NCBI GenBank assembly: GCA_021683455.1
Contig: GCA_021683455.1_3051.1
Length of the DNA stretch: 64,000 nucleotides
Reading direction: 5' to 3' (one strand)
Source: a phage
In this document: piece after piece, positions 5,762-12,319 of the stretch
Layout of the letters: each line of letters starts with the position of its first letter
How positions within the stretch are numbered: position 1 is the first letter of the stretch
The notes under the pieces: model-generated
The model's input: only the letters and a program-made list of their open reading frames with translations
The model's database searches: none
What the model was told of the DNA's origin: nothing
Program-made: the position numbers and the translations under genes

Positions 5762-6766
5762 TTAGCTCACCAACTCAATCCAAGCCGGACGAAGTACATC
5801 TTGTACCATTTTAACTAATTCCTTTTTAACCAAAGAAGGATTATCTGCTTGAGTTAGAGCAATACCTTCACGAGAAGTTTCTTCCAAAATATCTTGGACA
5901 GTTAGCCCCATCACCTTTCCAAAATCCTTTGGACCAATTTCGCCAATTTTAGAAATAACGTTATTTACTCGGTTCAGTGTAACGTAACAAGCTAAAATTC
6001 CCACCAATTTGTTATCAGCTTCTGACAATTCAACTTTAGCTTTAATAGGCTTATCAGACTTTTTCTTTTCACTAAATTTAGAATTCTTGCATTTGATGGC
6101 TACACGATTGCGATTAGGCAGCCAAGAAGGATAACAAGGTTTCAATACATATCCTTCAGCGGTAAATACTTCGCCTTTGGCTTCGGCATTCCAAACGCAT
6201 TTATTTGCATCAACTAATCCAGCATGGTCTACTGTAAAATTATAATCTTGGATGACAGAATCTAAATCATTTGGCAATTTAATAAGCTCTTCAAATTTAC
6301 CGCGACCTAAAAGTGGAGCGATTTTAAACCCAAATGAATTACAGAATGATTCCATCATATAATCATCGACATAAGTCACATCACCACTTTCTGTAGTGAC
6401 AATAATGTCAAATACATAAAAATCTTTATCACCATAATCAACATTCTTCTGAATGCCAGGTCCAGCGAATTCGCCAAAGACTTGATAAGATACAACCGCT
6501 GAAGTTTCCATAATATCTTGTACTGCTTTAATGGAATCAGCGTAATTTTTTAGAATAATTTCATACCCAAAGAAATCTTCAGCAGGAAGAATCGGTCCAG
6601 TACGTTTAGCGCAAGTTACTTTATCACGCTCAATAATCAATGAGAAATTTGTGCCGTGAATCTTTTCACGAGCTACCCATTCGCCGCCAGTCAATCCCAA
6701 GCTATAAAGTTTTTCAATAAATTTAGAGTTGTAATGATTTTCAAGACTGCTATACTTTTTAAACAT
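5762..6766 (-). CDS. rnlB: RNA ligase 2
   Basis: 334-aa ORF; N-terminal nucleotidyltransferase lysine motif (REKIHGTNF); length and position downstream of gene 24 as in T4. Confidence 0.85.
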
Positions 6767-7343: not shown

Positions 7344-8762
7344 TTATGGATAAGTATAGATGATACCAGTTTCTAAAGCAGTTTTATGGATGATGTATCC
7401 ATTACGTGATTCTTGAACATCAACTTCTGGATAATCTTTCATCATCTTCTGAAGCGTATAACGATGCAAGTAGTACTTACTATCTGGATCATCAGTTTTC
7501 CAATCTTTACCTTCTTCTGTCATTTTTTGGATTTCATCCATAACCCACCAACCGCACCAGATGTAAGCTGAAGTACGGTGTGGAAGAGGATGAACATAAG
7601 GCAATTCACCTTCTGGTTCCGGAGCAACTTTATCAGTTACCTGAACTTGACCCGTCGTTTTAACTGTTTTGCTATCATAATCAGTAGCAGTAACAGTTGC
7701 CGTAACTTCAATAGTTTGACTTCCAATAGATGAGGTATCAACGGTATATACATTAGTTGACCCTTCTGCAGGAGAAGAATCTTTCTTCCATGAATATTCA
7801 ATTTGCGCTTCTTCTGGAGCACCAGTGACATTAGCGGTAAATGTAGCTGAAGCATCTTGCTGAACGTTAATAGAAGGAGGAGTCAATGTAACCTGTGGAT
7901 TCATTGTCTTCTTATTAACTGTTAATGATACTTCATTAGAAGTAACTTCCTTTTCATTGTAATTTTCTGCTGTTACTTGGGCTACGCATTTAATTCTTTT
8001 TACTCCACTTGTAGTTGGAGTATAGCTAAATGTAGAGTTAGTTTCTCCACCAACTTGAGAATCATCTACATACCATTTATATGTAGCAGACGCTCCATCA
8101 GGTTGAGAAGCTAAGGCAGCAGTAAATTGAACTGGGGTTCCAATTACTCCTGCTGGAGGACTATTAGGAGTTACTGCCAAAGTAGTTGTCTGTGTCTTTT
8201 TATTAACAGTCAGTGATACTTCATTCGAAGTAACGGTTTTTTCATCATAATTTGTCGCGGTTACTTGAGCTACACACTTGATTTTTTTAACTCCGCTGGC
8301 GGCAGGAGTGTAATTAAATGTAGCAGAAGTCGCTTCGTCTACAGGAGAATCGTCAACGTACCATTGATACGTAGCAGATGCACCTGATGGCTGCGAAGCT
8401 AAGGCAGCAGTAAATTTAACAGCTGTTCCGATTACTCCAGCAGCGGGACTATTGGGAGTTACTGCCAATGTAGTTGTCTGAGTTTTATTTTTAACCGTTA
8501 TAGTAGTTGATGCTTGAGCTGTTTCAGGACTACTATCTGCAACTTGGTTTGTTGCAACTACCTTAATAGTCTTTTGACCGGCAGGTCCTTTTAACGTATA
8601 ATCAAAAGTTGCAGACGTTTCTTCCTGCGGTGCATCGTCAACAGTCCAAGCATAGGTAATAGGTCCATCTCCAGTTTGACCACTGGGCGTAGCAGTAAAC
8701 TGCTGAGTCTGATCTATAACTCCAGCAGGTGTTTTAGGAGTTATATCAACTGTAAAAGCCAT
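7344..8762 (-). CDS. hoc: Hoc outer capsid decoration protein, four Ig-like domains plus capsid-binding C-terminal domain
   Basis: 472-aa ORF; four tandem ~95-aa Ig-like modules (two nearly identical) followed by a Trp/Tyr-rich C-terminal domain; position between 24.x ORFs and inh. Confidence 0.85.
   Translation of the reverse strand: MAFTVDITPKTPAGVIDQTQQFTATPSGQTGDGPITYAWTVDDAPQEETSATFDYTLKGPAGQKTIKVVATNQVADSSPETAQASTTITVKNKTQTTTLAVTPNSPAAGVIGTAVKFTAALASQPSGASATYQWYVDDSPVDEATSATFNYTPAASGVKKIKCVAQVTATNYDEKTVTSNEVSLTVNKKTQTTTLAVTPNSPPAGVIGTPVQFTAALASQPDGASATYKWYVDDSQVGGETNSTFSYTPTTSGVKRIKCVAQVTAENYNEKEVTSNEVSLTVNKKTMNPQVTLTPPSINVQQDASATFTANVTGAPEEAQIEYSWKKDSSPAEGSTNVYTVDTSSIGSQTIEVTATVTATDYDSKTVKTTGQVQVTDKVAPEPEGELPYVHPLPHRTSAYIWCGWWVMDEIQKMTEEGKDWKTDDPDSKYYLHRYTLQKMMKDYPEVDVQESRNGYIIHKTALETGIIYTYP
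7917..8492 (-). repeat. tandem ~288-bp duplication inside hoc encoding two near-identical Ig-like domains
   Basis: Protein segments KNKTQTTTLAVTPNSPAAGVIGTAVKFTAALASQP... and NKKTQTTTLAVTPNSPPAGVIGTPVQFTAALASQP... (96 aa each) are ~85 percent identical; DNA copies are likewise near-identical. Confidence 0.85.
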
Positions 8763-8771
8763 ATGTTATCC

Positions 8772-9452
8772 TTATTTTAATGTTACGAAAGAAGAATTGC
8801 GTGTTTCACGAATTAAAACTGATCCGTCGCGATTAATGTAATAAATTAAGCTAAACAAAGTTTGGTGTGCTGACGCGTGTTCAAAACTAGTTGGATGAGA
8901 TTTCCAATCAGGAGTTTCAGCGATCCATTGATAAATCCACCAAGGAACCGTACAGAATCCTGGATTTTTCCCCAATAATTGAAGATTCGGGCTAAAGTTT
9001 TCCGGAAGAGTAAATACAGACGGCTTTTCAGATTCAATAATCTCAGCTACAGCTTGTTCAAACTTTTCTTCAACAAAAGGAGTGTCTTCAATCAAAACGT
9101 CAGTATTTTCAGGAATTTTATCCGTTTCTACCACTTCAATTTTAATATCAGATTTAACTGGAGAATCAATCAGAAGTGCTGCTTCTGGATTAACTTCTTC
9201 ATCGTCATATTTTAATCCCTCTGCAGCATCAGCAGCATCAATTAAGTCTTTAATAGATAACCCATCAGTCTCTGGCATAGGTTCACTAGCGAGCTTCTGG
9301 AGGGCTTCTTCAATATCAACAACGATATTATCAAAAGATTTATTCTTTTTGACCTTTATACCAAACTGTTCAGCGTATTCAGCTAATTTAGCTTTAGCTT
9401 CTTTATTATCATCAAGAGCCTTCAGCTCTGCAATATAATCTTTATCTATCAT
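8772..9452 (-). CDS. inh: Inh, inhibitor of prohead protease (hoc.1 position)
   Basis: 226-aa ORF immediately upstream of hoc on the same strand; length and synteny as in T4. Confidence 0.65.
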   Translation of the reverse strand: MIDKDYIAELKALDDNKEAKAKLAEYAEQFGIKVKKNKSFDNIVVDIEEALQKLASEPMPETDGLSIKDLIDAADAAEGLKYDDEEVNPEAALLIDSPVKSDIKIEVVETDKIPENTDVLIEDTPFVEEKFEQAVAEIIESEKPSVFTLPENFSPNLQLLGKNPGFCTVPWWIYQWIAETPDWKSHPTSFEHASAHQTLFSLIYYINRDGSVLIRETRNSSFVTLK

Positions 9453-9501: not shown

Positions 9502-10119
9502 ATGTACCACTTTGTATATGAAACAACAAATCTAATAAATGGTAAAAAGTATATAGGAAAACACTCTACTGATGACTTGAATGATGGTTACCTTGGTTCC
9601 GGTAAGGCAATTCAGCAGGCTATAAAGAAATATGGTGAAAACAATTTCTCTAGAACAATACTAAAAGAGTTTAAAACTTCTGAAGAAGCGTACATGTATG
9701 AAGAAGAAATTATAACTCCTGAACTAATAAAAAGCAAAAATTATTATAATATGAAACCTGGTGGAATTGGTGGAATTGTTATGACTACAGAGGTTATAAC
9801 AAAGATGAAAGAATCTTCCGCTAAAAGATTTGAAAACTCACCAGGCACGGTATTAGGTAAAACTTGTTACACTAATGGAACTAAAAATATTTTTATTAAA
9901 CCTGGAGAACTTGTTCCAGAAGGATTTGTAAAAGGGATGGTTCATCCTAATAGAAAGTCCAGAAAAGGATGTAAAGTCAAACCGACTACCACAGGAACTT
10001 TTTGGGTCAATAATGGCGCAATAAATAAATTAATACAACCAGACGGTATTATTCCCGACGGATTTATTAAAGGTCGTCTCATGAAAAGAGATTCTAAAGG
10101 CAAATTTAGTAAGGCATAA
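9502..10119 (+). CDS. GIY-YIG family homing endonuclease (SegE-like position between inh and uvsW)
   Basis: 205-aa ORF with N-terminal GIY-YIG module (HFVYETTNLINGKKYIGKHST...GSG), basic C-terminal DNA-binding region. Confidence 0.75.
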   Translation: MYHFVYETTNLINGKKYIGKHSTDDLNDGYLGSGKAIQQAIKKYGENNFSRTILKEFKTSEEAYMYEEEIITPELIKSKNYYNMKPGGIGGIVMTTEVITKMKESSAKRFENSPGTVLGKTCYTNGTKNIFIKPGELVPEGFVKGMVHPNRKSRKGCKVKPTTTGTFWVNNGAINKLIQPDGIIPDGFIKGRLMKRDSKGKFSKA

Positions 10120-10121
10120 TT

Positions 10122-11630
10122 ATGGATATTAAAGTACATTTTCACGACTTCAGTCATGTACGCATCGATTGTGAAGAGAGCACGTTCCACGAATTAAGAG
10201 ATTTCTTTTCGTTTGAGGCCGATGGATATAGATTTAACCCTCGCTTCAGATATGGCAACTGGGATGGACGAATCCGTCTTTTAGATTATAATCGCCTTCT
10301 TCCATTCGGCTTAGTCGGGCAAATTAAAAAGTTCTGTGATAACTTTGGCTATAAAGCCTGGATTGACCCACAAATTAACGAAAAAGAAGAATTATCAAGA
10401 AAAGATTTTGATGAATGGCTTTCTAAATTAGAAATCTATTCAGGAAATAAAAGAATTGAACCACACTGGTATCAAAAAGATGCAGTGTTCGAAGGATTAG
10501 TTAATCGTCGTAGAATTCTTAATCTTCCAACATCTGCAGGTAAATCTTTAATTCAGGCTCTGCTTGCGCGATATTATTTGGAAAATTATGAAGGTAAAAT
10601 TCTTATCATTGTTCCAACAACTGCTCTAACAACTCAGATGGCTGATGATTTCGTTGACTATCGTTTATTCAGTCATGCAATGATAAAGAAAATCGGTGGT
10701 GGAGCATCAAAAGATGATAAATATAAAAATGATGCACCAGTCGTTGTTGGTACATGGCAAACTGTAGTAAAACAACCAAAAGAATGGTTCTCACAGTTTG
10801 GAATGATGATGAATGATGAATGTCATCTTGCTACAGGAAAAAGTATTTCATCTATCATATCAGGTTTAAATAACTGTATGTTCAAATTTGGTCTATCTGG
10901 TTCATTACGTGATGGCAAAGCCAATATCATGCAGTATGTTGGAATGTTTGGCGAAATATTTAAGCCAGTAACGACTTCTAAGTTAATGGAAGATGGACAA
11001 GTAACTGAGCTAAAAATTAATAGTATTTTTCTTCGTTATCCTGATGAGTTCACTACTAAATTAAAGGGAAAAACTTACCAAGAAGAAATAAAAATTATTA
11101 CGGGGCTTAGTAAAAGAAATAAATGGATCGCTAAATTAGCTATTAAGCTTGCGCAAAAAGATGAAAACGCTTTTGTCATGTTTAAACATGTATCGCACGG
11201 TAAAGCTATTTTCGATTTAATTAAAAATGAATACGATAAAGTTTATTACGTATCAGGGGAAGTTGATACCGAAACCCGCAATATAATGAAAACCTTAGCT
11301 GAAAATGGTAAAGGAATAATTATAGTAGCTAGTTATGGTGTATTTTCTACTGGTATTTCAGTTAAAAATCTGCATCACGTTGTTTTAGCGCACGGTGTTA
11401 AATCAAAAATCATTGTATTACAAACAATCGGTCGTGTATTACGTAAGCATGGTTCTAAGACAATAGCAACTGTCTGGGACCTCATAGATGACGCGGGCGT
11501 AGTTTCTAAATCAAAAACATCTTCTAAAAAATACTCGCATTTAAACTATCTTTTAAAACATGGACTTGATCGTATTCAGCGTTATGCTGATGAAAAGTTT
11601 AATTATGTGATGAAAGAGGTTAAACTTTGA
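10122..11630 (+). CDS. uvsW: UvsW RNA-DNA and DNA-DNA helicase
   Basis: 502-aa ORF; SF2 helicase motifs (Walker A PTSAGKS, DEAH-like MNDECH); length as in T4 UvsW. Confidence 0.9.
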   Translation: MDIKVHFHDFSHVRIDCEESTFHELRDFFSFEADGYRFNPRFRYGNWDGRIRLLDYNRLLPFGLVGQIKKFCDNFGYKAWIDPQINEKEELSRKDFDEWLSKLEIYSGNKRIEPHWYQKDAVFEGLVNRRRILNLPTSAGKSLIQALLARYYLENYEGKILIIVPTTALTTQMADDFVDYRLFSHAMIKKIGGGASKDDKYKNDAPVVVGTWQTVVKQPKEWFSQFGMMMNDECHLATGKSISSIISGLNNCMFKFGLSGSLRDGKANIMQYVGMFGEIFKPVTTSKLMEDGQVTELKINSIFLRYPDEFTTKLKGKTYQEEIKIITGLSKRNKWIAKLAIKLAQKDENAFVMFKHVSHGKAIFDLIKNEYDKVYYVSGEVDTETRNIMKTLAENGKGIIIVASYGVFSTGISVKNLHHVVLAHGVKSKIIVLQTIGRVLRKHGSKTIATVWDLIDDAGVVSKSKTSSKKYSHLNYLLKHGLDRIQRYADEKFNYVMKEVKL

Positions 11631-12319
11631 ATTATAAATTAATATATGATAATTTAATTAATAGAGCCCAGAATCGGGCTCGCCTTAATGGATACACTGA
11701 AACACATCATATAATTCCTAGATGTATGGGTGGTACAAATGATAAGTGTAATTTAGTAGAACTAACGGCTGAAGAACATTTTATAGCCCATAAACTTTTA
11801 GCTAAAATTCATCCAAACCATTACGGTATAATTAAAGCTGTTATATGTATGGGGATGAATTCAAATACTCATGAAAGACATGTTAATAAATCTTACGCAT
11901 GGGAACGTCGTAAAATGGCAGAACTTCAATCCGGCGAAGGTAATCCATTTTACGGAAAACACCATACGGAAGAACATAAACAATATATGTCAAAACTCAT
12001 GAAAAGTCGTCCAATTACATGGGGAAATAAAATTAGTAAAACTAAAAGAATGAACCCAACGAAATGGACTGAAGAAGCTAAAAGATTACATTCAATCAAT
12101 CAATCGGGTAAAAATAACGGCATGTATGGAAGGAAACATTCTGCTAAATCTATTCAGAAAATTAAAGATAACATGCCAGATAATTCAGGAGCTAATAACC
12201 CAGCTGCTAAACCTATAGAAGTAAATGGTGTTAAATATAAATGTATGAAAGATGCTTCTAAAGCTACTGGATTATCAATGTACAAACTAAGAATACTTAG
12301 AAAAACAGTTAATTTATAA
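11624..12319 (+). mobile_element. free-standing HNH homing endonuclease gene inserted between uvsW and uvsW.1
   Basis: Intergenic endonuclease ORF at a position that I recall as a direct uvsW/uvsW.1 junction in T4. Confidence 0.6.
11627..12319 (+). CDS. HNH homing endonuclease with NUMOD-like C-terminal repeats; probable TTG start
   Basis: 230-aa ORF; HNH motif HHIIPRCMGGTNDKCNLVELTAEEHFIAH; repeated GK/RKHxxE/S motifs (NPFYGKHHTEEHKQYMSK, NGMYGRKHSAKSIQKIKD); in-frame stop at 11621-11623 leaves TTG at 11627 as the only start that keeps the N-terminus; overlaps the uvsW stop TGA. Confidence 0.8.
   Translation: MNYKLIYDNLINRAQNRARLNGYTETHHIIPRCMGGTNDKCNLVELTAEEHFIAHKLLAKIHPNHYGIIKAVICMGMNSNTHERHVNKSYAWERRKMAELQSGEGNPFYGKHHTEEHKQYMSKLMKSRPITWGNKISKTKRMNPTKWTEEAKRLHSINQSGKNNGMYGRKHSAKSIQKIKDNMPDNSGANNPAAKPIEVNGVKYKCMKDASKATGLSMYKLRILRKTVNL

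Follow-up and report, generated by a model that had tools for sequence, protein, structure and literature searches.

Genomic context of the hoc gene

We analysed a stretch of phage DNA of 64,000 nt (the window), in which a single open reading frame encodes a 472-aa Hoc (highly immunogenic outer capsid protein, the head decoration fibre) (Table 1). Across its first 25 kb, the window shares 95-98% identity with Tequatrovirus genomes such as G157lw, KIT03, KMB39 and T6, and the locus order inh - hoc - 24.3 - 24.2 - rnlB - 24 - 23 matches that of the annotated genomes of T4 GT7, KIT03, UFV-AREG1 and KMB39. By its sequence, the window comes from a Tequatrovirus (T4-like) genome.

A phmmer comparison with T4 Hoc from the PDB (5vf3_Z, 376 aa) gave E = 5e-217 for the window protein, with the alignment falling into two stretches (query residues 1-113 and 189-472) and skipping one module. 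Residues 189-472 align with residues 93-376 of T4 Hoc, and over the C-terminal ~95 residues the two proteins hardly differ. The exact 472-aa protein is public in NCBI as EIU5839750.1, a "PKD domain-containing protein" of Escherichia coli on a 106-kb contig; its source is apparently a phage sequenced inside a bacterial assembly and recorded under a generic name only. At 90% identity, the window Hoc belongs to a 58-member cluster that also includes the Hocs of WilhelmHis, wV7, Sf21 and others, and the best DNA identity of the window hoc to a phage record in a megablast search is 94.5%.

Three other ORFs lie in or near the locus. A 72-aa ORF at 7637-7855 (minus strand), in another frame and wholly within the part of hoc that encodes the D3 domain, is probably spurious. 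An ORF for a SegE-type GIY-YIG homing endonuclease (9502-10119, plus strand) is located between inh and uvsW, and directly after uvsW there is a 230-aa ORF with a TTG start and a NUMOD3 motif (11627-12319, plus strand). The latter is present in KMB39 and UFV-AREG1 and absent from the same position in G157lw and NiC89; because its presence varies among phages, it looks like a variable mobile endonuclease.

Table 1. Coordinates of hoc, its domains and repeat landmarks, and flanking genes in the window
Feature	Position	Strand	Residues	Remarks
rnlB	5762-6766			Small ORFs (24.3/24.2) between rnlB and hoc
hoc CDS	7344..8762	minus	472 aa	Single ORF
C-terminal capsid-binding domain	7344..7625	minus	380-472 + stop codon	T4 Hoc homology
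Ig-like domain homologous to T4 Hoc domain 3 (D3)	7626..7907	minus	286-379	T4 alignment, Pfam, model
m2, second D2-type Ig-like module	7908..8195	minus	190-285	Closest counterpart of T4 domain 2
m1, first D2-type Ig-like module	8196..8483	minus	94-189	Extra relative to T4
Ig-like domain 1 (D1)	8484..8762	minus	1-93	Translation; predicted beta-sandwich, high pLDDT
22-nt identical run	8395..8416 (m1) = 8107..8128 (m2)	minus		Longest m1/m2 identity
11-nt identical run	8470..8480 (m1) = 8182..8192 (m2)	minus		
inh-like ORF	8772-9452			Adjoins hoc

Domain architecture of the window Hoc

The reading frame, the alignment with T4 Hoc and an AlphaFold2 model agree on four Ig-like modules followed by a capsid-binding domain, as an earlier note on this DNA had proposed from the letters and the open reading frames. 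The model, which was built on a 48-sequence alignment, predicts four beta-sandwich domains and a C-terminal domain, with 10-residue-block pLDDT values of 78-96, mostly at or above 86, across residues 1-380, and the strand patterns that it assigns to the two D2-type modules match each other. The C-terminal domain is modelled at low confidence (pLDDT 40-66); it is nearly identical to residues 284-376 of T4 Hoc, and its columns in the 48-sequence alignment are mostly invariant. Among Pfam families, PKD reaches its gathering score in two stretches, the best of which covers residues 195-267 in m2, and Ig_3 and I-set match residues 289-367 at scores just under their cut-offs.

The model's top Foldseek matches in the PDB consist of several Ig domains in a row, as in Dscam Ig1-4, Sidekick Ig1-4 and ICAM-5 D1-D4. 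RB49 Hoc is not among the top 50 PDB matches, which are instead generic multi-Ig proteins; the matches thus support an Ig-string fold for the predicted structure and nothing more specific. The window protein has what defines a T4-type Hoc, namely homology in the capsid-binding domain, an N-terminal string of Ig-like domains and a conserved locus.

T4 Hoc (PDB 5vf3 and 8t1x), encoded at the same gene position, is shorter (376 aa; 1131 nt) and has three Ig-like domains and the capsid-binding domain, so that the window Hoc has one module more, again as had been proposed. The D1, D3 and C-terminal domains of T4 Hoc are collinear with those of the window protein and highly similar to them, and T4 domain 2 is identical to m2 at 258 of 288 nt. 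What T4 Hoc lacks is the 96-aa m1, which in the window sits between D1 and the T4-like D2.

A diverged tandem repeat within hoc

A repeat search identified a tandem direct repeat with a period of 288 nt (7905-8192 and 8193-8480), and TRF delimited it to 7905-8495, with 2.1 copies and a score of 707. The extra module is thus an in-frame tandem copy, 288 nt long, of a D2-type module, with 96 aa in each copy, and the interval first assigned to it (7917-8492) was about right, the in-frame modules being 8196-8483 and 7908-8195.

The copies are less alike than the earlier note had held. It gave ~85 percent identity at the protein level and called the modules nearly identical in DNA; the actual figures are 78 of 96 aa (81%) and 221 of 288 nt (76.7%). 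The 67 differing sites are distributed over codon positions 1, 2 and 3 as 13, 10 and 44, so that 44 of the 96 third positions differ. The main differences in protein sequence are SPVDEATSATF in place of SQVGGETNSTF and TATNYDEKT in place of TAENYNEKE. In the central 168 nt, identity is only 70% and synonymous sites are saturated, whereas the ends of the modules are more alike. Nei-Gojobori estimates between m1 and m2 are pS 0.61, dS ~1.28, dN 0.116 and omega ~0.09, with the qualification that dS on 96 codons is noisy and that gene conversion between the modules distorts the estimate. On these figures, the similarity of m1 and m2 is far beyond chance, yet the repeat is a diverged one. Neither module is disrupted, and the omega of ~0.1 between the copies indicates purifying selection on both.

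Four-Ig Hoc among Tequatrovirus phages

Megablast with the window hoc matched 665 phage records. From these, we drew a systematic sample of 60 rows spread over the ranking, of which 55 were full-length Tequatrovirus rows. The four-Ig form (1419 or 1425 nt in one piece) was found in 20 of the 55 (about 36%), the three-Ig form (~1131 nt; including T4, T6, T2 and RB3) in 30 and the five-Ig form in two, frequencies that derive from a 60-row sample of databases biased to E. coli/Shigella isolates and containing near-duplicate genomes. PNJ-9 has a two-Ig hoc. Furthermore, in a search of 5.8 billion proteins, the best 120 clusters included 30 with proteins of 468 or 472 aa and nine with proteins of 567-570 aa. 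Thus, the four-domain Hoc is common among close relatives, an outcome that the earlier note had itself named as counting against its reading.

A five-Ig hoc (1701-1710 nt; 567-570 aa; three D2-type modules) is present in at least 23 Tequatrovirus phage records, among them OV877085.1 (UGKSEcP1), OV876900.1, OL310488.1, OR539218.1 (KMB26), KY290975.3, LN881728.1 (slur03) and LR597660.1 (T4_ev151); the name of the last suggests that it may be a laboratory-evolved or recombinant phage. Irregular forms of hoc occur in OR757454.1 (BYEP02), KX452698.1 (KNP5), MZ501066.1 (FriedrichMiescher) and OP572230.1/OP555980.1 (UFV05/06), with match spans of 1496 and 2072 nt, a gene annotated as "Hoc part 1 / part 2", or 1418-nt genes given as several CDS. 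Such forms fit frameshifts, insertions or sequencing errors in a dispensable gene.

Recombination junctions among closely related hoc alleles

The closest genome overall, that of G157lw (97.7% identity across 25 kb), encodes a Hoc with three Ig modules. Between this hoc and that of the window, D1 differs at 2 of 279 nt and D3 with the C-terminal region at 11 of 564 nt, and the single D2 module of G157lw is identical to m2 at 275 of 288 nt. At the 67 sites that distinguish m1 from m2, however, the G157lw module is m1-like at the first 12 and m2-like from there on, with 54 of 55 sites agreeing with m2 and one with neither copy, and the switch maps inside the 22-nt run that is the longest stretch of identity between m1 and m2. 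A chimera that switches within the longest identical run is what would be expected from an unequal homologous crossover within a four-Ig allele like that of the window. A duplication of the G157lw module, by contrast, cannot yield m1 of the window.

Eight of the 11 differences between the window and G157lw in D3 and the C-terminal region fall within 13 nt (7653-7665), a clustering that suggests a short gene-conversion patch rather than point mutations.

The hoc of ESh24, also three-Ig, differs from that of the window at 1 of 279 nt in D1, and its switch from m1 to m2 follows the first informative site, inside the 11-nt identical run. Since the junctions in G157lw and ESh24 are distinct, they point to two events, and the simplest reading of the alignments is that of two independent in-frame 288-nt deletions, each converting a four-Ig allele into a three-Ig one. 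For ESh24, the direction is ambiguous: this allele could be ancestrally three-Ig, with m1 inserted later into the window lineage by recombination.

Comparison with the four-Ig phage NiC89 bears on this alternative. Module 1 of NiC89 is identical to m1 of the window at all 288 nt, whereas the two D1 regions differ at 57 positions, so that the window hoc joins a D1 of the G157lw/ESh24 type to an m1 of the NiC89 type. The identity extends over 305 nt, from 3 nt before the end of D1, through the whole of m1, to 14 nt into m2. In the sequence downstream of this tract, the window and NiC89 differ at 19 of 838 nt, from which ~6.9 differences would be expected per 305 nt (Poisson P ~0.001). An ESh24-like three-Ig allele (D1-m2-D3) might therefore have recently gained an old m1 when a four-Ig phage like NiC89 infected the same cell, and the unexpectedly long identical tract, the very different D1 of NiC89 and the fact that the three-Ig phages ESh24 and G157lw have the nearest counterparts of the window's D1, m2 and D3 would all fit such a gain. 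However, the 67 nt of m1 fused to m2 in G157lw would then need a further event, and a transfer in the opposite direction, out of the window lineage into NiC89, would account for the identical tract just as well; we consider this scenario unlikely. Under either the deletion or the gain reading, the comparisons indicate that m1 is an old module that passes from genome to genome, not a new duplicate.

The single modules of other three-Ig alleles are of the m2 type (T4 and locus L002), of the m1 type (locus L004) or mosaic (KIT03 and UFV-AREG1). We painted the single D2 of 78 three-Ig proteins by m1/m2-diagnostic residues, and 43 were scored as m2-type, 14 as m1-type and several as hybrids, all on four diagnostic positions in an 8-residue stretch (module residues 47-54). 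On the question of whether all three-Ig forms are simple m1-to-m2 chimeras, the painting thus gave a mixed picture, one that shows mosaicism among three-Ig modules.

Age and origin of the duplicated pair

The earlier note regarded the repeat as a recent duplication. Between the window hoc and the orthologous parts of other hoc genes, dS is 0.03-0.05 for G157lw, about 0.06-0.1 for NiC89 (downstream part), about 0.25-0.34 for KMB39 and 0.27-0.6 for T4. Against these values, the dS of ~1.3 between m1 and m2, which is near saturation, means that the modules are more diverged from each other than the window hoc is from that of T4. The same holds within other four-Ig phages, in which m1 and m2 are identical at 225 (NiC89), 215 (KMB39) and 222 (IMG/VR locus L001) of 288 nt.

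We then cut 120 homologous cluster representatives into modules and compared these with each other. The m1 modules of four-Ig forms share, on average, 84.8 of 96 aa with each other and 84.7 with the m1 modules of five-Ig forms, and the m2 modules of four-Ig forms share 82.5 of 96, compared with 76.3 of 96 between m1 and m2. Nearest neighbours are mostly modules of the same position. Within single proteins, m1 and m2 are identical at 71-82 of 96 aa in 29 of the 30 four-Ig proteins, with one exception at 54 of 96. Thus, m1 and m2 behave as positional orthologs across phages, which implies that the duplication had occurred before these alleles diversified.

A recent in situ, in-frame 288-bp tandem duplication specific to the window phage would agree with the exact tandem arrangement of the repeat, with its preserved frame and with its length of one domain. 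Such an event would, however, leave near-identical synonymous sites and be absent from close relatives, whereas the copies differ at 67 of 288 nt, mostly at third positions, hundreds of further phages share this diverged pair, and m1 recurs unchanged in NiC89. We give this explanation practically no credence; by these sequence comparisons, the duplication is old and its recent origin is refuted. That the repeat is an artefact of assembly, a mis-expanded repeat, is just as improbable: copies that differ at 67 sites (23% nucleotide divergence) are unambiguous to an assembler, the reading frame is intact, the 1419-nt architecture recurs in numerous genomes assembled independently, NCBI already has the exact protein and m1 is matched in full by the independently sequenced phage NiC89, so that the repeat can be taken as genuine.

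We therefore favour an explanation in which the D2-type pair would have arisen by an old in-frame 288-nt tandem duplication, or by unequal exchange between diverged hoc alleles, after which both m1 and m2 would have been retained under purifying selection. On this account, the number of Ig modules in Hoc (2, 3, 4 or 5) is a population polymorphism, which homologous recombination reshuffles, both among the diverged repeats and among phages that infect the same cell, and the recent events in the window lineage look like 288-nt in-frame deletions (four Ig to three) rather than a gain. Taken as a whole, this account of an old four-Ig allele class reshuffled by recombination is, in our judgement, very likely to be correct, and the window hoc would accordingly rank, with the same high confidence, as an ordinary member of a widespread and long-standing four-Ig class.

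The two independent deletion junctions among near-identical alleles, together with the coexistence of two-, three-, four- and five-Ig forms, suggest a further possibility, that of an "accordion" in which recombination-driven in-frame gains and losses of 288 nt between diverged D2-type repeats recur over short times. We put this forward tentatively, as possible rather than probable. If it is true, selection might act through such changes to fit the fibre's length and valency to adherence on mucus or other surfaces in different hosts.

Relation to known Hoc proteins

Among known proteins, the 472-aa Hocs of NiC89, Sf23, G28, slur02, KMB39 and ime09 share the architecture, the length and the positional orthology of m1 and m2 with the window Hoc, and the 474-aa forms in AR1, wV7 and Sf21 group with the 472-aa Tequatrovirus Hocs; the window protein differs from other 472-aa Tequatrovirus Hocs only by mosaicism at the level of alleles. 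The 568-aa five-Ig Hocs (UGKSEcP1/2, EC101, KMB26, YUEEL01 and slur03/08/14) have counterparts of m1 and m2 as their first two D2-type modules, together with a third that the window Hoc lacks.

Outside this group, two loci of more distant T4-like phages (L005, 1501-2919; L006, 1501-2916) encode Hocs of 471-472 aa that also have four Ig-like domains and a capsid-binding domain, with only ~50% identity to the window Hoc. Their duplicated module is of the D3 type, not the D2 type (in L006, the copies are identical at 65 of 80 aa and 213 of 282 nt, with dS ~1.1), which indicates an expansion independent of that in the window. Two-Ig Hocs of 279-282 aa are encoded by distant T4-like loci (L011, 1501-2349; L018, 1501-2340), an apparently independent contraction of the Ig string. 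The Hoc-like protein of Klebsiella phage PMBT63, likened here to the window Hoc by its description, has four Ig-like domains and a capsid-binding domain, and its published account remarks on the additional Ig domain compared with T4 (PMC13435897).

Published work already states that the number of domains in Hoc proteins varies widely. Fokine et al. (2023; PMC10385173) described 650 Hoc homologs with strings of Ig-like domains ranging from one domain (PG7) to ten (Muldoon), and Fu et al. (2024; PMC11853027) reported the two-Ig variant in PNJ-9. Gain and loss of Ig modules in Hoc is thus general and already recognised, and the four-Ig Hoc itself is already known. Our literature search found general statements and single cases (PMC10385173, PMC11853027, PMC13435897; nothing pertinent in PMC10580926) and no explicit map of the 3/4/5-Ig polymorphism and its junctions within Tequatrovirus. 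The four-Ig Hoc, as a common and already sequenced variant, carries little weight as a discovery, and mapping the polymorphism within Tequatrovirus would be an incremental addition.

Implications for the Hoc fibre

In T4, every gp23 hexamer has a single Hoc monomer at its centre, which makes 155 per capsid; the protein is dispensable for growth and forms a fibre ~180 A long (PMC10385173). By analogy, the C-terminal domain of the window Hoc would bind the centres of gp23 hexamers, with the Ig string extending outwards as a roughly straight fibre. It is a reasonable inference that this fibre is longer than that of T4 by one Ig domain, which we estimate to be on the order of 4 nm.

Additionally, the residues SLT have been described as the MUC2-binding site in D2 of the PNJ-9 Hoc (PMC11853027). 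By sequence match only, the same residues are found in both m1 and m2, within EVSLTVNKK. D2 being implicated in mucin binding, the window Hoc may offer two related but non-identical D2 surfaces.

To conclude, the deletion junctions provide a ready PCR assay (1419 versus 1131 nt) for the rate at which modules change. With about a third of isolates encoding what would be a longer fibre, and with a module number that can be changed by simple recombination, the three-Ig Hoc of T4 is not a safe default for Tequatrovirus in studies of therapy, vaccine display and mucus adherence.
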